A stretch of DNA of 58,318 nt, taken from assembly GCA_037137935.1 (NCBI GenBank), contig JBAXJI010000004.1, positions 1 to 58,318 on the forward strand, written 5' to 3'. Below are positions 1 to 40,945 of the stretch, in pieces. Position numbers and translations under genes: made by a program. Below the pieces are notes generated by a model. It made no database searches, was not told the DNA's origin, and worked only from the letters and a program-made list of their open reading frames with translations. Position 1 is the first letter of the stretch. Every line of letters starts with the position of its first letter. Source of the DNA: Candidatus Saccharimonadota bacterium (GTDB lineage: Bacteria; Patescibacteriota; Saccharimonadia; Saccharimonadales; AQU-01).

Positions 1-3000
1 GCAAAAGAATACAGCAAGCTAAACGAAGCCCAAAAACTAGCAGTCGACCAAATTGAAGGTCCCGTGCTGGTTATAGCAGGTCCAGGTACGGGCAAAACTC
101 AGTTGCTAAGCATGCGGGTAGCCAATATTCTACAGAAGACCGACACTTTACCTCAGAATATTCTTTGTTTAACTTTTACCGATTCAGCTACGGCTACGCT
201 ACGCAAAAGATTGACCAATCTAATAGGCCAGACAGCCTACGATGTCAGCATAAATACTTATCACTCTTTTGGTAGTGATTTAATTAGACGAATGCCAGAA
301 TATTTTGTCGATGATTCAGATATGCGGCCAGCAGACGATTTGAGCATTGACCAAACCTATAGAGATATACTGGGGAAACTATCTTATTCCAATCCTCTAA
401 AATTTTCTACAAGAAATATAAGTAATATACGCTCCATGATAAGTGATTTTAAGCGAGCACTTATGTCGCCAGATGACGTTCGAGCTATTGCAGAAGCTAA
501 CCTAAAATTTATTAGTTCAATGAGCGAAACGACTGTGCGTATTTTGGGCACAATAAAACGAATGGACAAATCCGCTATACCCAAATTCGCAGAACTAGCC
601 GAAGAAACTACAGACAAATATACTAGTGGCACTGAATTACCGCGAAACACTAGACCAATGCACGAACAGTGGCAAGAAGAGCTTGAACTTGCACTAGAAT
701 TCTTTGACGAAACAGGTAAAACAAACGAGATAACTGGCTGGAAGAATAACTGGCTGGCCAAGAATAGTAATGCTGAATTTATTGTCAAAAATGAGATGAC
801 GTCAAAAAAATTGTTGGCGATGGCAGACGTATATCAGGACTATTTAAAGTCATTAGAAAATCAGCAACTATTTGATTACGACGACATGATCATGAAAGTT
901 ATTAAAGGGCTGCAAACGAACGACGATTTGCGCTACACAATACAAGAGCAATATCAGTATATTATGTTGGATGAGTTTCAAGATACAAATATCGCGCAAA
1001 TGGATTTGATTAATCTACTAGCCGATAATCCAGTCAATGAAGGCCGCCCAAACATCATGGCGGTAGGAGACGACGATCAGGCCATATACGCTTTTCAGGG
1101 TGCAAAATATTCTCATATGCTTGCATTTTATAATACCTACAGGGAAGTAAAGGTAGTTACTCTTGTAGAAAATTATCGCTCACATAAGGATATATTGTTC
1201 GTAGCTCATGGGGTTGCAGAACAAATCGAATCTAGACTTCATCATAACTTTACAGAAATCAGCAAAACACTAACTGCAAGCAACACCAGCCTGCCAAACA
1301 AGGCTGAGATTGAAAGGCGTGAATTCAAGACAGACCTAGCGGAATACGGATGGATCACCAGACAAGTTGGTGACTTGATAAGCGGCGGAGTAGACCCCAA
1401 TGAGATAGCAATACTGGCGCCACAACATCGTTATCTTGAACCTTTAGTGTCGTTTTTTGCTAAAGCAGGCATAGCTATACGTTACGACAAACAAGAAAAT
1501 GTTTTAGACAATCCAATAGTTCTAGAACTAACACAGATGTGCCACTTAATTACGGCAATCAACCGCGGCGACGACGAAACGGCAGGTAGTTTGTGGGCGG
1601 AAGTTTTAAGTTACGAATACTGGAATCTTCCAACTAGCACGATCTGGGAATTGTCTTGGCAGGCCAATGACGAGAAGAAGGATTGGACTAATATATTACT
1701 GGCTAATCCATCAACAAAAATGATTGCACTATTTTTTATTAGACTAGGATTTATCATTAAATCAGAAACACTAGAAACTATGTTAGATTATATAATTGGC
1801 GTAAAATCGCTCAATCTAAAAGAGAATGATGAAGACACCTTTAGTTCTCCATTTTACCAATACTATTTTAACGACAAAATGTTAGTCGATGAACCTACAA
1901 AGTTCTGGGACTTACTAAACAACTTGACTGTACTTAGACAGCATTTACGAGAATACAAACAGCAAGATATAAGTCCACTAAATTTGCATGATTTTATAGA
2001 TTTTATTGTGGCGCACCGATTAGCAAATATTAAAATACTAAACACTAGCCCCTACAACCAATCAGATAATGCTGTACAACTAATGACGACATTTAAAGCT
2101 AAAGGACAGGAGTTTGAAGCGGTATTTGTGATTGCAGCGAACGATGAAGTTTGGGGCAGCAAAACACGAACAAAATCATCTGCACTTTCTGTCCCAGCAA
2201 ATCTAAACTTCATAACATATGGCGGCAGCAACGATGACGAACGGCTCAGACTTTTCTTTGTAGCAGTAACGCGTGCTAAGTCAAAGTTATACATATCAAA
2301 CTTCCAGGCTAGTTACGCAGGCAAACAAATGACTAGACTACGATATCTTGAAGAAAATGAAGACGAAAACGGCAAGACTATCAGCTTGTTACTACCAGAA
2401 AACATGCAAGATATAATTATTGACGATAGTGAAGCTCCAGAAATAGAACACCTAATGAGTTATTGGGAGAATAGACACACACAGGATATCAAAAATACCG
2501 ATCTAAAAAAACTTCTAGTCCCTAGATTAGAAAAATTCCTACTTAGCCCTACGCATGTAAATAGTTTTATCGATACAACTTATGGCGGGCCAAAAAATTT
2601 CTTTGTAAATACAATACTGCGGTTTCCTAAAGCCCCAACCATATCCGGACAGTACGGTAACGCCTTCCACGAGACGCTAGAATGGGTTCATAACTATAAT
2701 CGGAAGAATAGTTCGCTACCAACAATCAAACAGCTTCAAGAGCATTTTGAAATTAGAATAAAATCTAAAAAGATGTCAGAACAAGATACGAAACTTTTAA
2801 CAGAAAAGGGCCAGCAGTCGCTTGCTATATATTACAAGCAAAAATCATCACAGTTTAATGCTGGAAATGAACATGAATTCAACTTTAAACATGAGGGCGT
2901 GTTTATCGATGACGCGCATTTATCTGGCAAGATTGACCAACTTATTATAAACAAAATAGACAAGACAATTGTCGTGGTTGATTTTAAGACTGGCTCAAGT

Positions 3001-3324
3001 TACAGCAGATGGACAAACGAGACAAAATTGCACAAGTACAAACAGCAACTATATTTCTATAAGCTACTTGTAGAGAACTCACATACTTATGCAGGATATA
3101 AAGTAGTCGATGCCTATCTACAGTTTGTCGAGCCAAATGACGACAATGAAATTATAGACTTGCATCTAAACTTTAATGAAGCAGAGCTAGCTCAGACCAG
3201 AAAACTAATCAGTAAAGTATGGCAACATATAATGGATCTAGATTTTCCTGCTACAACAAATTACGACGATAGCTATAAGGGAATGATACAGCTAGAAACT
3301 GATTTGATAGACGGAATCATTTAG
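1..3324 (+). CDS. UvrD/PcrA-type SF1 DNA helicase fused to a C-terminal PD-(D/E)XK (RecB/Cas4-like) nuclease domain; 5' end cut by window edge
   Basis: Frame 1 is open from nt 1 (AKEYSKLNEAQKLAVDQIEGPVLVIAGPGTGKTQ, Walker A). Other helicase motifs: DEFQDTN, VGDDDQAIYAFQGA, ENYRS, VAVTRAK. C-terminal GKIDQL..VVVDFKTG..YKQQLYFYKLL looks like D..D.K/QxxxY nuclease motifs. Confidence 0.85.
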   Translation, partial: AKEYSKLNEAQKLAVDQIEGPVLVIAGPGTGKTQLLSMRVANILQKTDTLPQNILCLTFTDSATATLRKRLTNLIGQTAYDVSINTYHSFGSDLIRRMPEYFVDDSDMRPADDLSIDQTYRDILGKLSYSNPLKFSTRNISNIRSMISDFKRALMSPDDVRAIAEANLKFISSMSETTVRILGTIKRMDKSAIPKFAELAEETTDKYTSGTELPRNTRPMHEQWQEELELALEFFDETGKTNEITGWKNNWLAKNSNAEFIVKNEMTSKKLLAMADVYQDYLKSLENQQLFDYDDMIMKVIKGLQTNDDLRYTIQEQYQYIMLDEFQDTNIAQMDLINLLADNPVNEGRPNIMAVGDDDQAIYAFQGAKYSHMLAFYNTYREVKVVTLVENYRSHKDILFVAHGVAEQIESRLHHNFTEISKTLTASNTSLPNKAEIERREFKTDLAEYGWITRQVGDLISGGVDPNEIAILAPQHRYLEPLVSFFAKAGIAIRYDKQENVLDNPIVLELTQMCHLITAINRGDDETAGSLWAEVLSYEYWNLPTSTIWELSWQANDEKKDWTNILLANPSTKMIALFFIRLGFIIKSETLETMLDYIIGVKSLNLKENDEDTFSSPFYQYYFNDKMLVDEPTKFWDLLNNLTVLRQHLREYKQQDISPLNLHDFIDFIVAHRLANIKILNTSPYNQSDNAVQLMTTFKAKGQEFEAVFVIAANDEVWGSKTRTKSSALSVPANLNFITYGGSNDDERLRLFFVAVTRAKSKLYISNFQASYAGKQMTRLRYLEENEDENGKTISLLLPENMQDIIIDDSEAPEIEHLMSYWENRHTQDIKNTDLKKLLVPRLEKFLLSPTHVNSFIDTTYGGPKNFFVNTILRFPKAPTISGQYGNAFHETLEWVHNYNRKNSSLPTIKQLQEHFEIRIKSKKMSEQDTKLLTEKGQQSLAIYYKQKSSQFNAGNEHEFNFKHEGVFIDDAHLSGKIDQLIINKIDKTIVVVDFKTGSSYSRWTNETKLHKYKQQLYFYKLLVENSHTYAGYKVVDAYLQFVEPNDDNEIIDLHLNFNEAELAQTRKLISKVWQHIMDLDFPATTNYDDSYKGMIQLETDLIDGII

Positions 3325-3333
3325 TTAATAAAA

Positions 3334-3355
3334 CACCCTGACTTTCATCAGGGTG
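3334..3355. terminator. Hairpin between convergent genes (bidirectional terminator candidate)
   Basis: CACCCTGA-ctttca-TCAGGGTG is a perfect 8-bp stem. It lies between the helicase stop (3324) and the aquaporin stop (3380) and has an A-run upstream. Confidence 0.6.
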
Positions 3356-3379
3356 CTTAGTACTAATAGCTAAAAGCTA

Positions 3380-4156
3380 TTATTTTTTACGAGAAGCTGG
3401 CTTCTTGCGAGCCGGTGCTTTTTTGGCTGTACTTTTTGTTGTTGTCTTAGCTCGTGCAGATGTCGACTTAGCTCGTGCTGAAGTTGACTTAGCGCGCGAA
3501 CTTGAAGACTTGGCTTTTACTAAACGTGTAGGGAATGTAGACTCATCTGCAAATACCATACCGTAAAGGTTAATACCTACAAGAGCGCCCAAGAATGGTG
3601 CTGATGCGTAAGCCCAGCTCCATGAATAAATACCTGCAGCTACTGCTGGGTTTAAGACTGCGTTTGATGCAAGTGATGCAACTAGAATACCGACGAACAA
3701 TGAACCACCAATAATTGCCGCGTTCTTGCTTACTTCATGTTTTTGGAAGATCGCAGATGCAAAACCGAATGCAAAGATCATTGTACCAATTGCTTCTGCT
3801 GCAAATACTTTTCGTGAAAATTCAGTTCCGGCGACGCTTTCTAGGCTGTGGCCCAAGAAATACTTAATCAACGCGTAGGCAGCAAGACCGCCTAGGAATT
3901 GAAACATAATGTTTGCTACAGCTTTGAATGTAGAAATTTTTCTTACTGACCACAATCCGAATGTGATTGCAGGGTTTAGGTGCGCGCCTGAAAACGCGCC
4001 AACTGTTACTGTAAATAATGCTACTGTTCCACCCGCTGCTAGTGCTGCGAATAATGGAAATGATGTTCGACCTACGATTGTATAAACGACTAATGCTAGT
4101 GTCGCTGTTCCGATGAATTCTGCTAACAACATAGCGAGTTGTTTTCTTCCAAACAT
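3380..4156 (-). CDS. MIP-family channel (aquaporin/glycerol facilitator) with Lys/Arg/Ser-rich C-terminal tail
   Basis: Two NPA boxes (HLNPAITFG, VLNPAVAAG) and about 6 TM segments. Start moved to the ATG at 4156 because GGAGGG lies 6 nt upstream; the ORF-track start at 4219 has no RBS. Confidence 0.85.
   Translation of the reverse strand: MFGRKQLAMLLAEFIGTATLALVVYTIVGRTSFPLFAALAAGGTVALFTVTVGAFSGAHLNPAITFGLWSVRKISTFKAVANIMFQFLGGLAAYALIKYFLGHSLESVAGTEFSRKVFAAEAIGTMIFAFGFASAIFQKHEVSKNAAIIGGSLFVGILVASLASNAVLNPAVAAGIYSWSWAYASAPFLGALVGINLYGMVFADESTFPTRLVKAKSSSSRAKSTSARAKSTSARAKTTTKSTAKKAPARKKPASRKK
3447..3509 (-). repeat. 3 x 21-bp imperfect tandem repeat encoding the basic tail (AKSTSAR-type heptads)
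   Basis: Three consecutive units: ttagctcgtgcagatgtcgac / ttagctcgtgctgaagttgac / ttagcgcgcgaacttgaagac. Confidence 0.8.
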
Positions 4157-4300
4157 GATTGACCCTCCGTTAATTAATCCTATGGAATTAATCATAAATG
4201 CTTTTTGTGTTATATGCAAATATCAGTCAATAAACACAACAACAATCTATTTTTTTCTGTTAACAATTTATCAAAAAATTTCGTAAACAAATTCTATAAA

Positions 4301-4729
4301 TTAACGGCGTAAATGACGACGCTTGAGACCTGCAACTTGTAGTCTTACTGACTGACGATCTATCATACCTTGCGCGTGTTCTAATGATACTTGATCTTTT
4401 GCTTCTAACTTAAGTTTGTGTGCGTAATCAAATGCTTTTTGAGCTTCTTGTTCGTTAATTTCATCTGCGTTATCGGCCTCGTCAACTAATACTCTTAACA
4501 CATTATCTGCAACTTCAATTACACCGCCATTTGTAGCATAGTATTCAATCATGTCATCTTTGTCGGTTGCTTTTCTGCGAACACCAATTACGCCATGAGT
4601 TGCGACACTAATAAGCGGCATGTGACCTGGCATAACACCAATCTGACCTTCCAAAGTAGGAAGCAGAACTTCATAGACTTCTTCGCCGAATTTTACTCCA
4701 CCGAGTGTAACTAACTCAAATCTGATCAT
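4301..4729 (-). CDS. atpC: F1 ATP synthase epsilon subunit
   Basis: MIRFELVTLGGVKF..LPTLEGQIGVMPGHMPLIS is the typical epsilon N-terminal beta-sandwich, followed by a helical C-terminus. It is the last gene of the atp operon. Confidence 0.9.
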   Translation of the reverse strand: MIRFELVTLGGVKFGEEVYEVLLPTLEGQIGVMPGHMPLISVATHGVIGVRRKATDKDDMIEYYATNGGVIEVADNVLRVLVDEADNADEINEQEAQKAFDYAHKLKLEAKDQVSLEHAQGMIDRQSVRLQVAGLKRRHLRR

Positions 4730-4946
4730 CTTCCTAGATTTCTTTCTCTATGCAATCTGTCTTCAATTGCTTCTTTAATAGATAGGTAAGAGCCGGGCAC
4801 ATCGCCAACTACGAATTCTACACTAGCTGATTCAACAACTTCGATATCTTCACCGCGAATATATGCCTTGAATGATTCATGCTGCTGGGCAGTAAGAGCG
4901 TCGTTGAGGTTTGGTTCTGTTGAGAAATATGGAATTTGTTCAGACA

Positions 4947-4947
<1 letters not shown>
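4726..4947 (-). CDS. Hypothetical 73-aa acidic protein embedded in the atp operon
   Basis: Its ATG overlaps the atpD stop (TAATG) and its TGA overlaps the atpC start (ATGA). I recognise no family. Confidence 0.55.
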
Positions 4948-6446
<1,499 letters not shown>

Positions 6447-6470: not shown

Positions 6471-7337
6471 TTATTTCATAGCCTCCGCTCCACCAGTAAT
6501 TTCGGCTAATTCCTGTGTAATGGCAGATTGACGAGCAGTGTTAAAGGCCAACGTTAGGTCGTCTATCAAATCAGAAGCGTTGTCTGTAGCACTTTTCATT
6601 GCCATCATTCTCATAGAATGCTCAGAAGCCAAACTTTCAAGCAAGGCCTGCCACAATTGAACTTCTAATAATCTTTCTGTGACACTATCTAATACTTCTG
6701 CAACAGATGGTTCGAATGTAACTTGGGCTAACGAGTCGACGTTTTCTGTCGCCTCAAATCGTGCTGGCAACAAAGATAAACTTTTTGCTATCTGGACAAT
6801 GTTAGTCTTAAATTCAGTATAAATAAGCTGCACATCGTCAACTTTTTTATCTGCATACATTCCCGACAACGAGCTAAGTAACGGTCGAACATCGTTTGAG
6901 GTAGGCTGGTCGCCGAAACCATCATAGGCTGCAACCAAATCAACACCCTCTAAACGTCTAGCAAATTGAGCGGCCTGTTTACCGATAGCAACTACTTGCG
7001 ACTTAACACCGGTCTTGCTATCTTCCACAATGGCCTTTGCAAGTAATCGAATAACATTAGAGTTGTATGATCCGGCTAGACCTCTGTTACTCGTAATGAC
7101 GACGTATAGTCTTGTTTTGATATCACGTTTTACAAATAACGGATGATCATTAACTTCAGTAATCGCACTTAAACGAGTTAATAGCGAATAAGCGGCCTCG
7201 CGATAGGCACGTCCATGTTGAGCGAACTCTTGTGCGCGGCGCATTTTACTAGCGGCTACTAATTCCATAGCCTTTGTGATCTGCTTAGTGTTCTTAACAC
7301 TGCCGATTCTGCGCTTTAGTACAATAGTATTAGCCAC
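6471..7337 (-). CDS. atpG: F1 ATP synthase gamma subunit
   Basis: N-terminal ..IGSVKNTKQITKAMELVAASKMRRAQ and C-terminal ARQSAITQELAEITGGAEA are gamma signatures. Confidence 0.93.
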   Translation of the reverse strand: MANTIVLKRRIGSVKNTKQITKAMELVAASKMRRAQEFAQHGRAYREAAYSLLTRLSAITEVNDHPLFVKRDIKTRLYVVITSNRGLAGSYNSNVIRLLAKAIVEDSKTGVKSQVVAIGKQAAQFARRLEGVDLVAAYDGFGDQPTSNDVRPLLSSLSGMYADKKVDDVQLIYTEFKTNIVQIAKSLSLLPARFEATENVDSLAQVTFEPSVAEVLDSVTERLLEVQLWQALLESLASEHSMRMMAMKSATDNASDLIDDLTLAFNTARQSAITQELAEITGGAEAMK

Positions 7338-7351
7338 TTATTTGCTCCCGT

Positions 7352-8902
7352 TTATTTCTTTTCTTCAAGTTTGTAGCTGTTAGCAATCTTATGTGCAAGC
7401 TTGATGATTTTTTCTTTAACTTTAGCGTCTGGTTCGGCGCCAGTGTTGATGACTTCAATCTCTTTAGCTAGTTCGTGCTTAATATCACGAAGTAGGTTAG
7501 CTTCTGCCAACTTAACTTTATCGAGAGGGATAGCGTCAAAGCAACCTTCACTTGCAGCTAATAGGGTAGAGTACATCTGCCAGATTCCATAAGGGCTAAA
7601 CTGAGGCTGCTTGAGTAGCTCTGTTAATCTTTGACCGCGTTCGATACGATGTCGAGTTTCGGCGTCTAGATCGGTAGAGAACTGTGAAAAAGCGGCAAGC
7701 TCACGGAACTGAGCCAATTCGATACGCAATGATTTTGCGACACTCTTTACTGCCTTAGTTTGGGCATTTCCACCCACGCGTGAGACAGAAAGACCGACTG
7801 AAATAGCCGGGCGAATACCCTGATAAAACAAGTTAGTTTCCATGAAAATCTGACCATCAGTAATAGAAATAACGTTGGTAGGGATGTAGGCGCTAATGTC
7901 ACCAGCCTGAGTTTCAATAATAGGCAAGGCAGTAAGACTACCAGCACCCAATTCGTCGCTCATTTTGGCGGCACGCTCTAGTAAACGTGAGTGCAAATAG
8001 AAAACGTCACCAGGGTAAGCTTCGCGGCCCGGTGGGCGCCTTAGTAGAAGTGACATCTGTCGGTAGGCCGCTGCATGCTTAGTCAAATCATCATAGATGA
8101 TCAAGGCGTGCTGCTTGTTGTCGCGGAAGTATTCACCCATAGTCGCACCTGCATAAGGAGCCAAGTACTGTAAGCTTGCTGGATCAGCGGCACTAGTAGC
8201 AACAATAATCGACTGGTCCATAACGCCTTCACGCTTTAGTCGCTCAATCAAACGTGCAACCTTGCTTAGCTTCTGACCAATAGCGACATAGATATTGATA
8301 ACACCCGTATTTTGACGGTGCTGGTTAATCATAGTATCGACAGCAATTGCAGTCTTACCGGTTTGGCGGTCACCAATAATTAGCTCACGCTGACCACGAC
8401 CAATAGGAACCATCGCGTCAATCGCTGTAATACCAGTCATCATTGGTTCGTGCACGCTCTTACGAGCTAGAACGCCTGGAGCAATCTGTTCAACTCTACC
8501 AGTAAGCTTAGTCTTGATAGGACCTTTGCCGTCAAGAGGCAAGCCAAGAGGGCTTACAACTCGTCCGACCAACTCTGGACCAACAGGTACTTCAAGAACT
8601 TTACCTGTTAATTTAGCAGTGGCACCAGCCTTAATAGCTGTATCGTCACCCAAAATAACAGCACCGATTTCGTCGTTTCCAAGATTAAAGGCAAAAGCTG
8701 TGATATCTTCGCCATTTACACTTGTTACAGAAATCATTTCGTTATATCCACATTGAGTTAGGCCATAAATCCATGCCACACCGTCACCAATACGAGTGAC
8801 AATGCCAGTGTTCTCAATTTCTGGTCGATTTTGGAGGTCTGCAATCGCCGCACGAATATCGCCGGCTATCTCCTTGATAGATACATCACTTGCTGAACTC
8901 AT
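7352..8902 (-). CDS. atpA: F1 ATP synthase alpha subunit
   Basis: [19 protein letters not shown]-loop, [33 protein letters not shown]. Confidence 0.97.
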
Positions 8903-11364: not shown

Positions 11365-11976
11365 CTACAAACCTACAGCTTTTTTGAGTTTTTCTTTAAA
11401 AGTTACCGGACGACTGCCACTACAAGTTGCTGGATCATCTTCTGTATTTGACTTATGAGCGTCTCGCGGAACCGCACTGTATCTTTTGTCGATGATCGAC
11501 TGGTCGTCTTTGCCGTAATTTATCAATAATACATCTTCACTGTTTACCATTCTGCCGCTAACATTGCTAACAGTTTTGCCGTTTAGCACGAAGCTTAGCT
11601 TATTGCCGTCTTGGCCGTTAACATAGACATTGCTAGTTGTTGTGACGGCTTGATCGCTCAACCCATAGCCTATGTTTGCAAACAAATCTGCCCACATAAC
11701 AGCGTGAGAGTGAACATGAACAAGCCCAGGATTCTGGTCGTGCAAGTGAATTCTAGTACGCGGATTATCCGAATTAGATGACGTACAAGCCGTTTCTTCC
11801 TCATAATACCCAGGACCGTCAAACTTATCCAGGACTCCATTTACATACAAAGAGAAGTTAGCGTGATAATGCACAGAGTCAGGTTTATAGAGAGCGAACC
11901 GTATCGCCGTCGTAACTAAAGCACCAATTATTAATCCGACCAAACCCGCCACTACAACTTTTTTAGATATCTGCAT
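11365..11976 (-). CDS. Hypothetical membrane-anchored protein with His clusters
   Basis: N-terminal TM segment, then HYHANFSLYVNG and HLHDQNPGLVHVHSH, which are possible metal ligands. No family assigned. Confidence 0.6.
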   Translation of the reverse strand: MQISKKVVVAGLVGLIIGALVTTAIRFALYKPDSVHYHANFSLYVNGVLDKFDGPGYYEEETACTSSNSDNPRTRIHLHDQNPGLVHVHSHAVMWADLFANIGYGLSDQAVTTTSNVYVNGQDGNKLSFVLNGKTVSNVSGRMVNSEDVLLINYGKDDQSIIDKRYSAVPRDAHKSNTEDDPATCSGSRPVTFKEKLKKAVGL

Positions 11977-12178
11977 TACTCAATTATATCGCAATAATTG
12001 GTTTTCGTGTCGTAGAAGCTAATCAAATTACTTTTTTGACTACACGACAGCTTTGTTCTGAGCATGTATATGGTGTTATGTTCTATTGCGTAAACACTAA
12101 ATGTAGTATAATTATGGCGTAGATTAAGAGTGGCCAACCAATCATTCTTGGCCAAACCTTAACTACGGGGAGTTGTCT

Positions 12179-12619
12179 ATGACGGATACCATCCAAGTTC
12201 ATAAATTTCCTACGCCAGAAATTGGCTATTTTTCCACCGGAACACCAGAAGACGACCGGCAAATTGAAGATTTAACATCGATATTCACCCAAGACCCTAA
12301 GTTCGCTATACGCGCCCTAAGCATCTGCATCAAGCCAACCAACACTACTGACGCCATATTGGATGTTTATCGCGATACTGGATCGTCGGGCATTGAATCA
12401 CTAAAAGTAGTGTCTGATGGTTGGAATAAGGGCCTAGACACCAAACTGTATTTTGACGAAGCTACAGAAGAAGCAATCGACTCCAGTAAAGTCGTGAAAG
12501 CTATTAAAGCCGGTCCAGACAATAATGCTAAGCCTTCAAAGACTGAAAGAATCCGACACGAAAGGCTAGCAATCGTGCTCTCACGAATTGCCATGCATAA
12601 CAAAACAATTGACGATTAA
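12179..12619 (+). CDS. Hypothetical protein
   Basis: ATG at 12179 is preceded by GGGGAG 6 nt upstream. No family recognised. Confidence 0.6.
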   Translation: MTDTIQVHKFPTPEIGYFSTGTPEDDRQIEDLTSIFTQDPKFAIRALSICIKPTNTTDAILDVYRDTGSSGIESLKVVSDGWNKGLDTKLYFDEATEEAIDSSKVVKAIKAGPDNNAKPSKTERIRHERLAIVLSRIAMHNKTIDD

Positions 12620-18408: not shown

Positions 18409-19986
18409 ATGATGGAAACCGTCACAGGCCCACCGGTAACAAACGAACAACTAGTTGATGAAGCGCCTGTTCAGCAAGAAAAGCTGTCGTTATTTGATCA
18501 AGCGAAAGATTTAGTCAACAATTTCCGGGAGAGGATTAGGGGCACTTTTCCCGGCCAATCCGAAGAGCAGGTTACTAATTTAACAGGAGATGCTTTAGCC
18601 GATTTTGCCGTAGGAGAAGCTGATAAACCTCAGACTGATGACCAGGTTTTGGGGACAGAAGTAGCTTTTGTAGCCTCAGGGACTGAAGCGGTAGAGGATG
18701 GTCTGCTAGGGGGTTCGAACGACCCAATTAGAAAAGAGATTGCCGCAGGCGACCTAGCTCATGTAGTGGACGCAGTAAGAAACATTGCAGACAGTGGAGA
18801 CATTGCTACCGCTGAGACCATTGCCCATGATGTTGACAAGCTCGATCGCCAAGCTCAAATAGAAAAGCTTGAAAAAGGCATAGGTACAGTATATATATAT
18901 ATGGAAGACGGCGAGGATTTAAGCCCTGGAGAGTTGAAGAAACGAAAGAATAATGCTGAAGCGTGGAAAAGGGACCGGCAAGAGTGGCACGGAGAGGAGC
19001 TGGACTCAGCACATGACGCCGCACTAGAACTATCAAAGAAACTCGGTGATCCGCCTCGAATCATTGCTATGCGAGGAGGATGCGGATCGGGTAAGTCATT
19101 CGCAGTAAGAAGCATATATGGTGACCGGGGTATTTTTGATGAGGAGGGTGATGTTCCTGGAGCAGTAAAGCCTGATTACTTCAAAACACGCATCAAGCAA
19201 AAAGAACTAGAATCACCTCCCCCTCCAGGAGTAAAAGTGACATCCGAACAGGTGCATTTAGAATCAACTGGTATGAATGCTATGTTTACAGAACGCCTCG
19301 CCCAAGACCCTGAAGCGTCTTTATTGATCGATAAACAACTGGAAGCGGCAGATGACATTACTAGTCTTATTGAGATGGGCAAGAAATACGGGAAACCAGT
19401 GGAGCTCCTAGATATGGATGTACCAATCGAACTGTCGGCTTTTCGCGTACTTAAACGGCAAGTTGGTGGGGTTGACCCGAATATTAGATTTGATGGTGTT
19501 TCAGCAGGTTTTAGGGGCATTCGGGTTAATCGCGAAGCAGCGCTTAGCGCCGTTGAATCTGAAGAGATTGTAACTGAATATTCCTTGCGAGCTTTTGACC
19601 CAGAGAGTAGGCAACAAATAGAAATTGCGAAAAAAGAAGATGGCCGAGTGGTAGCAAGGGCTGGGTATGAAGACCTAGCTGAGCAAGTTATCAATCAGCC
19701 AGAAGCTAAGACTGATCAAGAAATTCAAGATGCGGCTAGTCAAATGATAACCGAGGAGTATATCGAAGATTTTGTAGCTAAATACTTTGATGACTCAGAG
19801 ACAGGCGAAAAGGGCCGAATGGAGGCACGCAAGATATTAGGTGCATATGTAGGTCTTGATATGACCGTCGAGGAAGCGTTGGCATCAAAAGCGGCAGGCA
19901 TTGAGGCAGATCCTGATTCACCAATGTTTTCTGGGGACTATAAAGATAAACTGGTAGCTTGGAAGGGTCAGCAGGATGAAAAATAA
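18409..19986 (+). CDS. Zeta-toxin-like P-loop kinase domain protein with about 200-aa acidic N-terminal extension and acidic C-terminal extension
   Basis: PRIIAMRGGCGSGKSF (Walker A), then AVKPDYFK (the Asp context of zeta/AvrRxo1-type kinases), VHLESTGM, LLIDKQ, and LSAFRVLKRQ (Arg pair). RBS GGGGA upstream. Confidence 0.6.
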   Translation: MMETVTGPPVTNEQLVDEAPVQQEKLSLFDQAKDLVNNFRERIRGTFPGQSEEQVTNLTGDALADFAVGEADKPQTDDQVLGTEVAFVASGTEAVEDGLLGGSNDPIRKEIAAGDLAHVVDAVRNIADSGDIATAETIAHDVDKLDRQAQIEKLEKGIGTVYIYMEDGEDLSPGELKKRKNNAEAWKRDRQEWHGEELDSAHDAALELSKKLGDPPRIIAMRGGCGSGKSFAVRSIYGDRGIFDEEGDVPGAVKPDYFKTRIKQKELESPPPPGVKVTSEQVHLESTGMNAMFTERLAQDPEASLLIDKQLEAADDITSLIEMGKKYGKPVELLDMDVPIELSAFRVLKRQVGGVDPNIRFDGVSAGFRGIRVNREAALSAVESEEIVTEYSLRAFDPESRQQIEIAKKEDGRVVARAGYEDLAEQVINQPEAKTDQEIQDAASQMITEEYIEDFVAKYFDDSETGEKGRMEARKILGAYVGLDMTVEEALASKAAGIEADPDSPMFSGDYKDKLVAWKGQQDEK

Positions 19987-38155: not shown

Positions 38156-38920
38156 ATGAGCAAAACAATTACACTTATCGGTTTGAGAAAATTCAATTAT
38201 TTTATGGCGGCACTCCACGGCCTCCAAGCAGTCGCCTTACTGGCACTAAGTAAAAACTTTACTCTGCCTATAAGCGCAGGTTATTTGAGTTGGGACCAGG
38301 CCGCTATGAGAGTAGTGCCGCGGAGTACTGTGCTCTTTAACTTGTCACTGCCATTACTTATCGCCATGTTTTTGATTATATCGTCGGTTGCTCATATCAT
38401 AATAGCAACCGTATACAACAAAACTTATAACGAAAACCTACAGAAGGGCATCAACAAAGCCCGTTGGTTTGAGTACTCTATATCAGCAAGCATTATGATG
38501 GTTGCGATTGCATTACTAGTTGGTGTCTACGACCTAACAAGCCTAGTTATGATCTTCGGCCTTACTGCAATTATGAACTTGCTTGGACTTGTCATGGAAA
38601 TACACAACCAAACAACTACCAAGACTAACTGGGTTAGTTATTGGATAGGCTGCCTTGCAGGAATCATTCCTTGGCTAGTTATAGCATTTTACTTCTGGTT
38701 GTCAGCAAGCAAGGAAACAGCCGCGCCAGTATTCGTCTACGTCATTTTTATCTCCCTATTCATCTTCTTTAACTGCTTCGCAATCAACATGGTTTTGCAA
38801 TACAAAAAAGTCGGCAAGTGGAGTAATTACCTATACGGTGAACGTGCCTATATCATCCTTAGCCTAGTTGCTAAATCTCTACTAGCATGGCAGGTATTCG
38901 GCGGCACACTTCGTCCATAA
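38156..38920 (+). CDS. Heliorhodopsin
   Basis: Seven TM segments. Strong recalled similarity to heliorhodopsin 48C12: ..FNYFMAALHGLQAVALLAL, RWFEYSISAS (counter-ion Glu context), and KWSNYLYGERAYIILSLVAKSLLAWQVFGGTL (Schiff-base Lys in SLVAKS). Confidence 0.9.
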   Translation: MSKTITLIGLRKFNYFMAALHGLQAVALLALSKNFTLPISAGYLSWDQAAMRVVPRSTVLFNLSLPLLIAMFLIISSVAHIIIATVYNKTYNENLQKGINKARWFEYSISASIMMVAIALLVGVYDLTSLVMIFGLTAIMNLLGLVMEIHNQTTTKTNWVSYWIGCLAGIIPWLVIAFYFWLSASKETAAPVFVYVIFISLFIFFNCFAINMVLQYKKVGKWSNYLYGERAYIILSLVAKSLLAWQVFGGTLRP

Positions 38921-39132
38921 TAGTCTTTAAAAGCACTTGCACTATGGTGTATAATTAATTTAGCAATGGGAGCATGAACCGCAATCGTGGTCATAGTTCA
39001 CAGGCTTTATTTTTCAACTATAGGGCGGCATACTCCGGTCACTACCTCACCCTCACACAGCTAAACCTGTAGATATAGTAACCGAACGGTTTTACTTATA
39101 TCACTTTATCAGGAAGCTCACATTTAAAACCC

Positions 39133-39144
39133 GTTCAGCTGAAC
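39133..39144. promoter_or_regulatory. Perfect 12-nt palindrome GTTCAGCTGAAC in the leader of the three-ORF cassette (candidate operator)
   Basis: Self-complementary sequence 52 nt upstream of the ORF at 39196. A second arm-palindrome, AACCG-AA-CGGTT, lies at 39080-39091. Confidence 0.3.
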
Positions 39145-39195
39145 CAAATGGTCAGTTGTTCTCTTAAAGTCTACTAAATGTGAGGAGCTAGAGTT

Positions 39196-39456
39196 ATGAA
39201 TCAAACAATCAACAAGCAAATTTCGGTATTGTCTTATTATTTTTCCAGCGGCAACTGTGCGCGTTTCTTCCCTAAAAAAATTGAATTTGAAGGAAGCGAA
39301 CTAGACTTGATCGAATCTGGTCTTAGGTGCTTGGTCAAAAAAGGTCAAAGCTTTATTCAAATATTCAACATGAGTGACGGCAACAACGAATACCGCCTAA
39401 GTTTTGAACCAGACAACCGTGAATGGACTCTACTAAGCATGAAAGCTCAGGCCTAG
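39196..39456 (+). CDS. Small protein (86 aa), paralogous to the 39674 ORF; pattern reminiscent of DUF6504-type proteins that accompany ImuB-like polymerases
   Basis: RBS GAGGAG upstream. KIEFEGSELDLI...DGNNEYRLSFEPDNREWTLL. Confidence 0.55.
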   Translation: MNQTINKQISVLSYYFSSGNCARFFPKKIEFEGSELDLIESGLRCLVKKGQSFIQIFNMSDGNNEYRLSFEPDNREWTLLSMKAQA

Positions 39457-39459
39457 ACC

Positions 39460-39681
39460 ATGCAGCTCACACTTCAACTTGCGTCTAACAATAGCTGGGC
39501 ATTTGCTAAGTACCGTCGCTACAACTATCCAATCAATCCATCGTCTAATAGAAACATAGTCATCACTGCCTGTTCGCGTGAAGCAAAATTACTTGGAATT
39601 AAAGCAGGCATGCACTATGAAAAAGCCAAGACTTTAATACCAGAAATTAAAATATTCATAATCGGAGGGACCAATGTATGA
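39460..39681 (+). CDS. 73-aa protein resembling only the N-terminal segment of Y-family/ImuB-like DNA polymerases (catalytic Asp positions not conserved)
   Basis: NIVITACSREAKLLGIKAGMHYEKAKTLIPEIKIF resembles the ..VV.a.s.eA...Gv..GM....A..l.P.l.. segment of DinB/UmuC/ImuB. It starts 3 nt after the previous stop and overlaps the next ORF by 8 nt. Confidence 0.5.
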   Translation: MQLTLQLASNNSWAFAKYRRYNYPINPSSNRNIVITACSREAKLLGIKAGMHYEKAKTLIPEIKIFIIGGTNV

Positions 39682-39898
39682 CAAAACAAACACCGAATTG
39701 GCAGAAGTACTTAGACACTCCAGTCAAAACTTCCAGACTTTCAAAATCAAATGGCAAGGCGTCGACTACCACATCTCGAAAATCGTCTACAAACAGTCAA
39801 AGGGGACTCCAGCCAATAACTTTTGCGTTCTTGAGGCAACTGACGGATTGGCTATTTTTGAAATAGTCGCCCGTCAGCCTTGGCCAAAATACCACTAA
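39674..39898 (+). CDS. Small protein (74 aa), paralog of the 39196 ORF
   Basis: GGAGG 5 nt upstream. FKIKWQGVDYHISKIVY...FCVLEATDGLAIFEIVARQPW parallels ORF 39196. Confidence 0.5.
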   Translation: MYDKTNTELAEVLRHSSQNFQTFKIKWQGVDYHISKIVYKQSKGTPANNFCVLEATDGLAIFEIVARQPWPKYH

Positions 39899-39955
39899 TA
39901 TGAACAATCTACAAAACTCATTACAAATGACTAGTAATCTGTTATTCTATGTCAT

Positions 39956-40945
39956 ATGAATCTCTTTTCGAGTCTCAACCATGCCCCAGTGCACGACTAT
40001 CATGTACCGCTTTTTCTATATCTAGCCATGCTGGCCGTACTAGCATTTTACGCAGTTATCGAATTTCGACATTCAAAACACGATCACGTAATTAAGTTCA
40101 AAGAGGCTCTAAAGTGGTCACTTATATACATATTTATTTCGCTAGCTTTTTCGGTTCTAATATTTTTCTTGATTGGCAAACAAGCGGCTGGTGAATACCT
40201 AGCAGCTTGGGGAATCGAGAAGGCCTTAAGCCTCGACAACTTATTTATTATGGGACTGATTTTTACTGGGTTTAAGGTCAAGCCAGAATACCAACGACGA
40301 ATGCTCAATTACGGCATTGCTGGCGCAATAATCTTCAGACTTATATTTATCCTAGCCGGATTTGAGCTTTTGAGACGATTTGAGTGGGTGAGTATTATTT
40401 TTGGACTAATCCTATTAAGAGCATCCTGGAAGGCATACAAAGAGGCTCGTGGTGGTCATGATATTGAAGAAGAATTTGAAACCATTGAAGGACCGATGAT
40501 CCGACTCATGAACAAAGTTCTGCCTATATACCCAAAATTTGTCGGCCATAAATTAACAACCAAAATAGACGGAAAACGAATGCTAACCATGATGGCTGCT
40601 GTGATTATTATAATAGAGTTCACAGATATCATATTTGCTGTGGACAGCGTACCGGCGGTATTAGCAGTAAGCCCAGACCGTTTTATAGCCTACTCCAGCA
40701 ATGTTTTTGCATTACTAGGCCTAAGAGCTCTATTTTTTGTCTACGAAGCTGTCGCCGACAAGTTCTGGGCAATTAACTGGGCGCTGTCGGCTATCTTGGG
40801 CTGGATTAGCTTTAAGATGATAACCGGTCCATTCGGCCTACATATACCAATATTAATCAATCTTAGCGTTCTGTTTGTATTATTTTTCGGTAGCATGATT
40901 ATTTCTATCATATGGCAACCCAAGCACAAAAAAGCTAAAGCTTAA
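39956..40945 (+). CDS. TerC-family integral membrane protein
   Basis: KALSLDNLFIM, FAVDSVPAVLAV and an overall TerC/Alx-like topology. Confidence 0.88.
   Translation: MNLFSSLNHAPVHDYHVPLFLYLAMLAVLAFYAVIEFRHSKHDHVIKFKEALKWSLIYIFISLAFSVLIFFLIGKQAAGEYLAAWGIEKALSLDNLFIMGLIFTGFKVKPEYQRRMLNYGIAGAIIFRLIFILAGFELLRRFEWVSIIFGLILLRASWKAYKEARGGHDIEEEFETIEGPMIRLMNKVLPIYPKFVGHKLTTKIDGKRMLTMMAAVIIIIEFTDIIFAVDSVPAVLAVSPDRFIAYSSNVFALLGLRALFFVYEAVADKFWAINWALSAILGWISFKMITGPFGLHIPILINLSVLFVLFFGSMIISIIWQPKHKKAKA

Follow-up and report, generated by a model that had tools for sequence, protein, structure and literature searches.

Organization of the locus

Three short genes, ORF1, ORF2, and ORF3, lie in close succession behind a non-coding stretch of 275 nt (38921–39195) that follows directly on the stop of the upstream gene at 38920. 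ORF1 and ORF2 are separated by 3 nt, ORF2 and ORF3 overlap by 8 nt, and a further frame, ORFx, overlaps ORF3 (Table 1). These positions and spacings, the leader length, and the coordinates of two palindromes in the leader agree with those given in a first-pass annotation of the same DNA. The window, i.e., the whole 58-kb stretch that was analysed, comes from a lake Candidatus Saccharibacteria, and neighbouring genes in it encode, among others, a heliorhodopsin, TerC, and a glutaredoxin.

Profile searches across the whole 58-kb window yielded no UmuC, IMS, or S24 match in any other frame, in line with the earlier observation that no remainder of a polymerase is recognisable beyond ORF2, and neither imuA nor dnaE2 is present at the locus. 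PADLOC reported no defence-system match, and the consistent DNA-repair context of the genes led us to discard a toxin-antitoxin or defence role. We conclude that the three genes represent, without its polymerase, a DNA-damage-tolerance operon that is found across Saccharibacteria.

Table 1. Genes and predicted leader elements of the locus, in window coordinates.
Feature	Position	Strand	Details
Predicted sigma-70-type promoter	38926–38955	+	TTTAAA, 18-nt spacer, TATAAT; -10 box 38950–38955
Predicted structured 5' leader RNA	38962–39195	+	about 235 nt; 5' end inferred from the -10 box
P1 (predicted)	38963–39005	+	stem 38963–38973 with 38996–39005, enclosing P1a (38974–38980 with 38989–38994)
P2 hairpin (predicted)	39023–39052	+	UCCG/UUCG-type tetraloop, loop 39034–39037
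Predicted anti-Shine-Dalgarno segment	39051–39057	+	CCUCACA; pairs with UGUGAGG 39179–39185
P3/P4 (predicted)	39059–39118	+	P3 39059–39069 with 39110–39118, enclosing P4 hairpin 39072–39081 with 39092–39102
Predicted pseudoknot partner	39131–39136	+	CCGUUC; pairs with loop GAACGG 39084–39089
Predicted terminator-like hairpin	39136–39165	+	CAGCUGA 39136–39142 with UCAGUUG 39152–39158; U-rich tail 39159–39165
Shine-Dalgarno and ORF1 start codon	39182–39198	+	GAGGAG 39182–39187; start codon 39196–39198; read from sequence
ORF1	39196–39456	+	86 aa
ORF2 (mini-IMS)	39460–39681	+	73 aa
ORF3	39674–39898	+	74 aa
ORFx	39678–39866	+	62 aa; alternative frame overlapping ORF3

The leader is predicted to fold into a conserved regulatory RNA

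The promoter scored 10/12 in a promoter scan, and its -10 box (TATAAT or TATACT) is kept in all 22 aligned Saccharibacteria loci, with A36 and T37 invariant. Downstream of it, blocks of leader sequence are conserved in 22 species-level loci; the most conserved of these, CAUACUCCGGUCACU, sits within P2, and in 21 of 23 loci the ATG follows it at a distance of 162–175 nt. RNAalifold recovered leader helices with compensatory changes, among them P1 (6–16 with 53–62; seven of nine pairs changed on both sides) and P2 (103–113 with 118–130), and the minimum-free-energy folds of individual leaders repeatedly gave the same architecture. Alignment-free comparisons of cognate and non-cognate duplexes, made on 22 and 66 leaders, support P1 (p = 8e-4), P3 (p = 6e-19), P4 (p = 3e-24), and the terminator-like hairpin (p = 7e-18).

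Pair counts on alignment A8, which was fitted to the model and thereby favours the structure, gave 83.6% paired versus 69.9% in shuffles and 34–47% in slid controls; 28 of 31 pairs were changed on both sides, and none of 500 shuffles reached the observed values. All eight pairs of the helix between the anti-Shine-Dalgarno (anti-SD) segment and the Shine-Dalgarno (SD) region (helix 1 in these counts) were changed on both sides, each helix of P3/P4 (helices 2–5) contains such pairs, the terminator-like hairpin (helices 7–8) covaries, and 98.1% of the cells of the pseudoknot are paired. A covariance model with 63 single-copy matches finds the window at 39048–39196 (74.9 bits, E = 4e-11). The register of the anti-SD helix varies between lineages, and the covariance-model alignment therefore misplaces it for the window.

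Two long-range pairings stand out. The GAACGG in the P4 loop is predicted to pair with the downstream CCGUUC, a combination found in 45 of the 66 leaders; others carry the compensatory variants GAGCGG/CCGCUC (three leaders), AAACGG/CCGUUU (three), and GGACGG/CCGUCC (one), and G-U intermediates account for 11. The anti-SD segment just 3' of P2 would pair with the ribosome-binding site of the first gene (-12.5 kcal/mol by RNAduplex in the window), and this complementarity is kept elsewhere with other sequences, such as CAUAUACAACUC with GGAGUUGUAUAUG and AUCCAAGC with GCUUGGAU. Across 66 non-redundant leaders, the cognate combinations beat the non-cognate ones (p = 2e-8), and GGAG is conserved at the SD position of the leader alignments. 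A simple terminator scan of 38800–40000 called none; it misses the terminator-like hairpin of the window because the loop of this hairpin is 9 nt, and the U tract is longer in the consensus.

The RNA pattern precedes cassette genes in all 51 informative metagenomic copies and all 22 genome loci, and in four loci (L038, L044, L064, and L066) it stands directly before a gene related to ORF2, with no ORF1 in between. Three of 59 metagenome pattern matches (L060, L078, and L079) were set aside as high-GC chance matches that the covariance model does not recover.

The leader thus combines a covariation-backed structure with a 5' UTR position and a putative expression platform, and we interpret it as a conserved folded regulatory RNA that is predicted to hide the ribosome-binding site of the first gene. 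Its multi-helix 5' UTR includes a pseudoknot and unpaired nucleotides that are highly conserved; with its terminator-like hairpin, its anti-SD:SD helix, and its constant link to one set of genes, it resembles riboswitches and other cis-regulatory leaders that use SD-sequestering or terminator platforms. Unlike these, it belongs to none of the 4227 families of Rfam 15, and it is riboswitch-like, with ligand binding putative. At the Rfam gathering thresholds, only three tRNAs were found in the window, and in E-value mode nothing better than E = 0.83 was returned for the window leader and that of L033. Among titles and abstracts on Saccharibacteria and riboswitches, none was relevant; one of these papers concerns synthetic riboswitches as tools. 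To our knowledge, no RNA element governing genes for translesion polymerases has been described, and the leader RNA appears to be new.

ORF1 resembles ImuB-C accessory proteins

Homologues of ORF1 form 26 clusters, and 147 representative clusters were reached with a profile search; the large proteins P0119, P0166, and P0204 among the profile matches are repeat-driven false positives. All of the homologues come from Saccharibacteria, where they occur in the genomes of 17 GTDB species and on many metagenome contigs. All 21 polymorphisms of ORF1 within the species are synonymous (p = 8e-16), which shows that ORF1 is under strong purifying selection. The AlphaFold2 model (pLDDT 88) is all-beta with seven strands. 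In the family, P26 is invariant and followed by basic residues, and W77 and L79 are nearly invariant.

Pfam and NCBIfam gave no match for ORF1 or ORF3. The first-pass annotation had likened both to DUF6504 (PF20114), a membership that gains slight support, and this from distant relatives: at the gathering score of 24.2 bits, neither ORF1, ORF3, nor 26 close ORF1 homologues match, and nine of 120 distant superfamily members do so below the threshold (best E = 0.0032). Two distant relatives align at about 13 bits, collinear with profile positions 5–44 of 103. A literature search on DUF6504 returned no paper.

ImuB-C also exists as a standalone all-beta protein, in which a C-terminal Trp is conserved and which is found together with DinB, UmuC, DnaE2, or Ku plus ligase (PMC3765255, PMC6511836). 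The beta-barrel of ImuB-C is a novel fold without a close relative in the PDB (PMC12926913). ORF1 resembles these accessory proteins of Y-family polymerases. Like the standalone ImuB-C in lexA-imuB-C-polY of Geobacter sulfurreducens (PMC3765255, PMC6511836), the ORF1 family is small (80–100 aa in this comparison) and has no catalytic motif. It is likewise found directly upstream of an active Y-family polymerase, beside a UmuC-like gene, or beside Ku. ORF1 also shares the all-beta make-up, the C-terminal Trp, and conserved basic residues. A Foldseek search of the PDB with the ORF1 model gave no significant match (best E = 0.23), which agrees with the absence of a close PDB relative of ImuB-C (PMC12926913); the superfamily profile found nothing among PDB sequences. 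Unlike standalone ImuB-C, ORF1 and ORF3 stay below the DUF6504 threshold, and their likeness to it is one of features and context, not of a direct ImuB-C match. The window operon also differs from that of Geobacter in having no lexA, a predicted structured RNA leader in front, and no polymerase behind. YolD/YqjX, which accompanies YqjW/UvrX in Firmicutes, is a comparable small beta-rich accessory gene upstream of a Y-family polymerase; unlike it, ORF1 has no Pfam YolD match, and the SH3-like fold of YolD is reported to be distinct from ImuB-C (PMC12926913). ORF1 would thus extend the poorly understood ImuB-C accessory family to Patescibacteria.

ORF2 is a selected fragment with similarity to Y-family polymerases

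ORF2 matches the Pfam IMS profile (PF00817) with 25.3 bits against a cut-off of 23.2 (E = 1.6e-5), over residues 31–65 and profile positions 30–64 of 148. A profile of its family, which we refer to as mini-IMS, hits the fingers of REV1 (E = 1.2e-6) and of pol iota, eta, and IV in the PDB. A word-indexed homologue search with ORF2 retrieved only its own 90% cluster, and the family comprises 19 distinct homologues of 57–108 aa. When these are aligned with polymerase N-termini, all 19 carry K, R, N, Q, or T in place of the catalytic Asp of the D-L-N-S-A-F motif. ORF2 ends before the palm resumes, and the palm with its catalytic Asp-Glu, the thumb, and the little finger (IMS_C) are absent. AlphaFold2 on the single ORF2 sequence was uninformative (pLDDT 49.5). 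Pfam, the PDB profile matches, and the alignment agree with the earlier identification of ORF2 as an N-terminal Y-family fragment that lacks the catalytic Asp, and we conclude that it is a predicted catalytically dead fragment made up of strand beta1, helix alphaA, and the fingers.

ORF2 is not debris. Sixteen of its 20 polymorphisms within the species are synonymous (p = 5e-8), dN/dS between mini-IMS genes of different species is 0.12–0.24, and strong purifying selection thus acts on the gene. The family coexists with a full-length UmuC-like gene in L013, L020, L028, L029, and L094. A Y-family N-terminus of about 75 residues can therefore be kept by selection as a separate gene. Such genes would have been missed by a recent polymerase survey, which left out fragments shorter than 200 residues (PMC12926913).

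ImuB is likewise a Y-family homologue that has lost catalysis, acts as a non-catalytic component, and is tied to an ImuB-C-type module. Even the most reduced forms of ImuB keep the thumb, little finger, RecA-NT motif, and fused ImuB-C (PMC12926913), whereas ORF2 is confined to about 75 N-terminal residues. No full-length inactive core with fused ImuB-C is encoded at the locus, which also differs from the ImuB-ImuA-DnaE2 mutasome by lacking the genes for the two partners.

ORF3 is probably a decaying paralogue and overlaps ORFx

ORF1 and ORF3 had been proposed to be paralogues. They show no pairwise similarity (no BLASTP alignment at E ≤ 100), and a shallow ORF3 alignment gave a weak hhalign result with the ORF1 family (2.6% probability). 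With the ORF3 family enriched from other loci, hhalign matched it to the ORF1 family at 95.4% probability and to the wider superfamily at 98.8%. ORF3 is therefore best described as a putative distant, divergent paralogue of ORF1, visible by profile-profile comparison alone. The C-terminal F-D...W-x-L strand of its homologues is missing in this species, and the 10 synonymous and 23 non-synonymous polymorphisms of ORF3 do not differ from the neutral expectation (p = 0.11). ORF3 evolves near-neutrally under relaxed constraint, and its frame is already broken in L011 and L014.

The start codon of ORFx overlaps the stop codon of ORF2 (ATGA). Its N-terminal motif, W-x-x-Y-L-D-T-P-V (39699–39725), is found 3' of the mini-IMS gene in 12 of 19 loci and also in an alternative frame of ORF3-like genes (L017, L045, L038, and L066). 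Over codons 1–22 of ORFx, six of nine polymorphisms are synonymous (p = 0.004), compared with one of nine in the ORF3 frame. The overlap of ORFx and ORF3 is thus a candidate for dual coding.

Related loci place the family beside translesion polymerases

In related Saccharibacteria, ORF1 homologues are followed by an S24 peptidase and a UmuC-like gene, by mini-IMS, S24, and UmuC-like genes, by an active IMS-type polymerase, by mini-IMS with or without an ORF3-like gene, or by Ku (in L089, PF02735, E = 2.6e-36). The genes of two distant members of the superfamily overlap the beginning of Y-family polymerase genes whose products have an intact catalytic D and E. The view that ORF1 and ORF3 belong to a family of polymerase-accessory proteins is borne out by these homologues directly upstream of Y-family polymerases. 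Similarly, the first-pass suggestion of a minimal module fits ORF1 and ORF2, both of which are under purifying selection; homologues of ORF2 share an operon with a full-length UmuC-like gene.

The closest known parallel in gene content is UmuD'2C (Pol V). In L013, L020, L023–L025, L028, L029, and many metagenome loci, the genes that follow this leader and ORF1 encode an S24 peptidase and a UmuC-like protein with a DUF4113 tail, both of which the window lacks. The S24 proteins of these relatives (about 116 aa) have no DNA-binding domain. Control appears to rest on RNA instead of LexA. Our literature search found no work linking Saccharibacteria to translesion synthesis.

A model for the locus and alternative readings

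Positions 38926–39898 are probably one species' reduced copy of a locus that is found throughout Saccharibacteria, and a promoter, an RNA leader, and a cassette of translesion accessory genes together form the best overall explanation of the sequence. The sigma-70-type promoter would give rise to the leader RNA followed by the small translesion-linked genes. By in silico folding, this RNA would form P1, P2, P3/P4 with its loop-to-downstream pseudoknot, the terminator-like hairpin, and the long-range helix with the SD region. The folded leader may silence the operon by making the ribosome-binding site inaccessible, and possibly also through transcription termination, until a signal opens it; a small molecule, a protein, or a cue related to damage could provide this signal. 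ORF1 would be an ImuB-C-like all-beta accessory protein that in relatives precedes UmuD/UmuC-like or DinB-like polymerases, ORF2 a selected, non-catalytic Y-family polymerase fragment made up of N-terminus and fingers, ORFx a gene for a short peptide whose translation is coupled to that of ORF2, and ORF3 a decaying ORF1 paralogue. ORF1, ORF2, and ORFx may act as non-catalytic subunits or regulators of translesion synthesis, and in this species their partner would be a polymerase encoded at another site, or they would act without one.

Error-prone polymerases are normally silenced by the LexA protein, and a conserved structured RNA before such operons across a bacterial class points to RNA-based control of mutagenesis. 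It is possible, as a tentative extension of the model, that in Saccharibacteria a dedicated RNA sensor takes the place of LexA in the control of translesion and mutagenesis genes and, in this case, governs a non-catalytic trio. If so, the leader would represent a new class of riboswitch or ribo-regulator, whose damage-related signal might be, for example, a metabolite of the nucleotide pool, a damaged base, an alarmone, or a protein titrated by damage. The module would include an unrecognised trio of an ImuB-C-like protein, a stand-alone Y-family fingers fragment, and an overlapping-frame micropeptide, which persists even where no polymerase is encoded nearby. Saccharibacteria have minimal genomes and are now becoming genetically tractable, and the leader RNA is a well-defined new candidate for a ligand or partner search.

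The leader could instead be an autoregulatory protein-binding site rather than a metabolite riboswitch, with ORF1 or another cassette protein binding its own mRNA until it is titrated away by damaged or single-stranded DNA. Gene 32 of phage T4 is autoregulated in the same way. In favour of this, ORF1 is extremely conserved and in most loci comes first behind the RNA, and nucleic-acid binding has been proposed for ImuB-C (PMC3765255). We nevertheless consider autoregulation unlikely: in four loci, the RNA directly precedes mini-IMS in the absence of ORF1, in L065 it precedes a truncated ORF1, and the binding itself is putative.

That the cassette is pseudogene debris, left by the collapse of a mutasome or polymerase operon by deletion and open in frame by chance, is quite improbable. 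Such a collapse had been suggested in the first-pass annotation, and it may hold for ORF3, which is truncated, near-neutral, and broken in two loci. The truncated ORF1 of L065 and the lack of a polymerase, S24 peptidase, or UmuC-like gene elsewhere in the window would also fit. It does not hold for ORF1 and ORF2, given the purifying selection on both within the species and on ORF2 between species as well; mini-IMS is intact in 19 lineages, five of them with a full-length UmuC-like neighbour, and the leader RNA is fully conserved in the window.

Equally improbable is a reading of the conserved RNA as a free-standing small RNA that has a promoter and a terminator of its own and is not a cis-acting leader of ORF1. 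The conserved promoter and the terminator-like hairpin with its U tract do bracket about 200 nt, as a small RNA would require, but only a short gap ever separates the hairpin from the first start codon, the anti-SD segment shows covariation with the SD and AUG of the gene that follows, and the RNA lies on the same strand directly upstream of cassette genes in every informative metagenomic copy.

The palindromes GTTCAGCTGAAC (39133–39144) and AACCGAACGGTT (39080–39091), which lie downstream of the promoter, had suggested operators in a DNA control region for a LexA-like or other repressor, the classical mode of control of translesion operons (PMC6511836); this is very improbable, as the palindromic form of neither is kept across species, the window contains a single copy of each, GAACGG and CCGUUC covary with each other over 40–47 nt, the stems around the loop change sequence with pairing kept, the anti-SD and SD segments covary over about 130 nt, which a DNA operator does not predict, and no lexA gene adjoins any of the loci. 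As bare 12-mers, they are not beyond chance, because 10–18% of shuffles match with up to one mismatch. Both are instead parts of RNA helices in the conserved leader: GTTCAGCTGAAC straddles the pseudoknot strand and the 5' arm of the terminator-like hairpin, and AACCGAACGGTT lies inside the P3/P4 region.

Cassette layout

The three small ORFs re-read as the first-pass annotation had described them, with a 3-nt gap between ORF1 and ORF2 and an 8-nt overlap between ORF2 and ORF3. The preceding gene ends at 38920, and 275 nt of non-coding DNA therefore lie before ORF1. The protein cluster of ORF2 has one member attributed to a Candidatus Saccharibacteria MAG.

Table. Coordinates of the cassette, its leader and related features in the window and in related loci
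Locus	Feature	Position	Strand	Details
Window	Near-match to core P2 motif	19119-19134	-	2 mismatches
Window	Heliorhodopsin gene	38156-38920	+	254 aa, PF18761
Window	-10 box	38950-38955		TATAAT
Window	Leader, covariance-model match	39048-39196		74.9 bits
Window	P4 loop	39084-39089		GAACGG
Window	P4 loop partner	39131-39136		CCGUUC
Window	ORF1	39196-39456	+	86 aa
Window	ORF2 (mini-IMS)	39460-39681	+	73 aa
Window	ORF3	39674-39898	+	74 aa
Window	ORFx	39678-39866		motif at 39699-39725
Window	Both frames open and conserved	39674-39866
L017	Both frames open and conserved	5268-5513
L045	Both frames open and conserved	3828-4130
L038	Both frames open and conserved	815-1066
L066	Both frames open and conserved	983-1261	-
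L071	Two cassettes	1649-5400
L013	UmuC-like protein	6977-8512		511 aa
L013	Gene with SMODS and AGS_C matches	11501-12249

ORF2 is a conserved, non-catalytic polymerase fragment

ORF2 matches the Pfam IMS family above its gathering score (25.3 bits, E 1.6e-5), within residues 31-65 only (profile positions 30-64 of 148). A profile built from five homologs retrieved human REV1 (3gqc, E 1.2e-6), pol iota, pol eta, and Pol IV/Dpo4 from the PDB, in each case through the helix-hairpin of the fingers domain. We aligned 19 mini-IMS proteins with polymerase N-termini, using a landmark sequence that we take to be that of Dpo4 and that is consistent with the coordinates of the PDB match. The proteins are collinear with the first ~75 polymerase residues (beta1, alphaA, and fingers), carry K, R, N, Q, or T inside a conserved W-A-F-A motif in place of the catalytic Asp of D-L-N-S-A-F, and end where the palm would resume. 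These matches bear out the proposed Y-family N-terminal fragment without catalytic Asp. Since that residue is replaced and the protein stops before the palm, ORF2, judged by its sequence, cannot be a polymerase.

Two explanations had been offered, a mutasome cassette collapsed by deletion or a minimal module, and the former fits worse. There are 19 distinct mini-IMS versions (57-108 aa), and in the related loci L013, L020, L028, L029, and L094 the gene lies between ORF1 and an S24 (UmuD-like) gene, followed in the first four by a full-length UmuC-like gene (the L094 sequence stops inside the S24 gene). Within the window's species, 16 of 20 polymorphic sites in ORF2 are synonymous (p = 5e-8) and the four replacements all fall in a variable linker; between species, mini-IMS dN/dS is 0.12-0.24 where dS is unsaturated. 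Together, the many versions, the coexistence with UmuC-like genes, the synonymous excess, and the low dN/dS argue that ORF2 is not debris, and the minimal module is the better fit.

ORF1 and ORF3 probably belong to an accessory family

Homologs of ORF1 form 26 clusters, down to 44% identity and all of 80-90 aa, and a profile search of 1.84 billion representatives yielded 147 clusters, nearly all of 75-110 aa. All 21 within-species polymorphisms in ORF1 are synonymous (p = 8e-16). The AlphaFold2 model is confident (pLDDT 88) and all-beta with seven strands; Foldseek found no significant neighbour for it in the PDB. What follows an ORF1 homolog is an S24 gene and a UmuC-like gene, mini-IMS and then both of these, paralogs and an active IMS-type polymerase, mini-IMS alone or together with an ORF3-like gene, or Ku (PF02735); others converge on a UmuD/UmuC-like pair. 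The distant superfamily members P0150 and P0205 overlap the start of Y-family polymerases whose catalytic residues are intact. This adjacency to Y-family polymerase, UmuD/UmuC-like, and Ku genes supports the earlier reading of ORF1 and ORF3 as accessory proteins.

ORF1 and the gene context of its homologs match the published picture of standalone ImuB-C proteins, small all-beta proteins in which a C-terminal Trp is conserved and which occur in association with DinB, UmuC, DnaE2, or Ku plus ligase (PMC3765255, PMC6511836). The ImuB-C beta-barrel fold is novel and lacks a close PDB relative (PMC12926913). The suggested DUF6504 identity survives as a remote link: neither ORF1 nor ORF3 matches any Pfam family, but DUF6504 is the family matched most often among 120 distant relatives (nine members, best E 0.0032), two of these relatives aligning collinearly with DUF6504 positions 5-44 at ~13 bits, below the cut-off of 24.2. 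It is likely that ORF1 and ORF3 belong to DUF6504 and ImuB-C, and they would then be additions to a family of accessory proteins that is known but poorly understood.

BLASTP found nothing between ORF1 and ORF3. A model built from window-clade ORF3 sequences recovered ORF3-like proteins in eight other loci, and the alignment thus enriched matches the ORF1 family with 95.4% probability (E 1.8e-8) and the wider superfamily with 98.8% (E 1e-16) over the full length, so the claim of paralogy was correct. In the window, ORF3 is missing the final F-D...W-x-L strand seen in homologs, its polymorphisms (10 synonymous, 23 non-synonymous) are indistinguishable from neutral (p = 0.11), and it is probably decaying.

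A fourth frame after the mini-IMS gene

Directly after the mini-IMS gene, in a different frame from ORF3, lies ORFx, with the motif W-x-x-Y-[IL]-[DE]-[TS]-P-[VIL], which occurs in 12 of 19 mini-IMS loci when F/L variants at the aromatic positions are included. Its ATG shares bases with the ORF2 stop codon (ATGA), as also in the related locus L011; this is the usual layout for translational coupling. Six of nine within-species polymorphisms in codons 1-22 are synonymous in this frame (p = 0.004), against one of nine in the ORF3 frame. Changes between the window lineage and L038 are silent or conservative in ORFx (L-E-T-P to L-D-T-P) and replacements in ORF3 (G-D-T to R-H-S). The conserved motif, the ATGA overlap, and the synonymous bias make ORFx probably a real short gene. 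In silico, ORF1, ORF2, and the first part of ORFx all show selection. The ORF3 frame of the same DNA reads I-F-G-D-T-Y in the ORF3-like genes of L017, L045, L038, and L066, where the alternative frame is open for 55-60 codons; over the 5' part of ORF3-like genes that frame reads Y-L-E-T-P-I. The overlap reflects either dual coding or a frameshift relationship between ORFx and ORF3.

A structured leader RNA precedes the cassette

When the 400 nt preceding ORF1 were footprinted against 22 other loci, strongly conserved blocks emerged. The full alignment has a conserved -10 box, accompanied in the window by a TTTAAA -35 box, and then a conserved stretch of ~235 nt that runs up to the start codon in every aligned locus. 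RNAalifold predicted three helices, in which 13 of 22 pairs stay paired through two-sided changes. The same architecture recurs in individual MFE folds. In it, P1 contains an inner hairpin, P2 is capped by a UUCG-type loop, and P3 encloses the P4 hairpin; a terminator-like hairpin carries a U-rich tail, and a long-range helix joins the segment just 3' of P2 to the Shine-Dalgarno (SD)/AUG region. The P4 loop is complementary to a downstream partner and covaries with it; among 66 non-redundant leaders, GAACGG/CCGUUC is commonest (45), with compensatory GAGCGG/CCGCUC (3), AAACGG/CCGUUU (3), and GGACGG/CCGUCC (1), intermediate G-U variants (11), and three others that are not explained.

The two palindromes sit where the first-pass annotation placed them, each single-copy in the window, and taken as isolated 12-mers neither exceeds what chance would give. 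AACCGAACGGTT corresponds to the P4 loop together with the top of P4, and GTTCAGCTGAAC to the pseudoknot strand, directly adjoining the 5' arm of the terminator-like hairpin. The proposal that they are operators is wrong because both are parts of a structured RNA whose half-sites covary. The original observation holds and its interpretation does so in part, for the accessory proteins and the polymerase fragment.

An alignment-free test on the 66 leaders, which compares a leader's own 3' arm with those of other species as pairing partner, supports P4 (p = 3e-24), P3 (6e-19), the terminator-like hairpin (7e-18), the anti-SD:SD helix (2e-8), and the pseudoknot (2e-3). In the covariance-model alignment, 83.6% of cells are paired (shuffles 69.9 +/- 0.6%, slid partners 34-47%), 28 of 31 pairs changed on both sides (shuffles 20.5 +/- 1.5), and the covariation score is 0.376 (shuffles 0.167); being fitted to the model, this alignment favours structure, a weakness of which the alignment-free test is free. 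The covariance model, which spans the 3' two-thirds of the leader, recovers a single copy from each of 63 loci and one from the window. Rfam 15 has no match for the leader. The only other near-match to the core P2 motif in the window, AATACCCCGGTCACCA, has no covariance-model match and is probably due to chance.

The leader accompanies the whole translesion module

Scanning a metagenome collection with a pattern of P2, the loop, and the loop partner returned 59 loci. Three are chance matches of high GC content that the covariance model rejects too, and five without downstream sequence were left out; cassette genes lie immediately downstream of the RNA in 51 of 51 informative loci. Usually ORF1 comes first, starting 50-100 nt past CCGYYY, and after it come an S24 gene and a UmuC-like gene, an IMS-type polymerase, mini-IMS, or no further gene. 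Elsewhere the first genes are mini-IMS with ORF1 absent (L038, L044, L064, and L066), an ORF3-like gene and polymerase (L045), or a truncated ORF1 with a UmuD/UmuC-like pair (L065), so the RNA goes with the entire translesion module and not with ORF1 alone.

In silico, the locus has a promoter, a leader with a conserved fold, a covarying helix that sequesters the SD and in most species also the AUG, and, before the SD, a hairpin followed by a U tract. The folded leader would repress translation, and perhaps also terminate transcription, until some signal lifts the repression. ORF1, ORF2, and ORFx may act as non-catalytic partners or regulators of translesion synthesis.

We know of no described RNA element controlling translesion polymerase genes, and the leader is a new candidate for a cis-regulatory RNA. 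In the literature searched, nothing connects Saccharibacteria with translesion synthesis; papers naming both Saccharibacteria and riboswitch showed nothing relevant by title or abstract, and one of them mentions riboswitches only as engineering tools. As far as we know, and in the literature searched, neither the mini-IMS family nor ORFx has been described; fragments below 200 residues were dropped from the most recent polymerase survey (PMC12926913).

Genomic surroundings

A heliorhodopsin gene lies directly upstream of the cassette promoter. The order heliorhodopsin, cassette, TerC, glutaredoxin is confined to the species cluster of the window (L001-L010). Upstream genes differ in more distant relatives, so heliorhodopsin has no conserved link to the cassette. 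In several distant loci (L013, L015, and L017), a DUF3048 gene and a histidine kinase/response regulator pair lie immediately upstream of the leader and may have a regulatory tie to the cassette. On the reverse strand of L089, the leader and an ORF1 homolog precede Ku (PF02735, E 2.6e-36) and an ORF that by eye resembles LigD, a candidate only; this order agrees with the published association of ImuB-C with Ku plus ligase. L071 has two cassettes, leader-ORF1-mini-IMS on one strand and, convergent on the other, an ORF1-like gene with a full-length IMS-type polymerase, for which the covariance model finds no leader. The UmuC-like protein of L013 is longer than its relatives (~440 aa), and its split profile match points to a ~70-residue insertion after the fingers region. 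About 3 kb downstream of its gene, weak SMODS and AGS_C matches suggest a CBASS-type nucleotidyltransferase.
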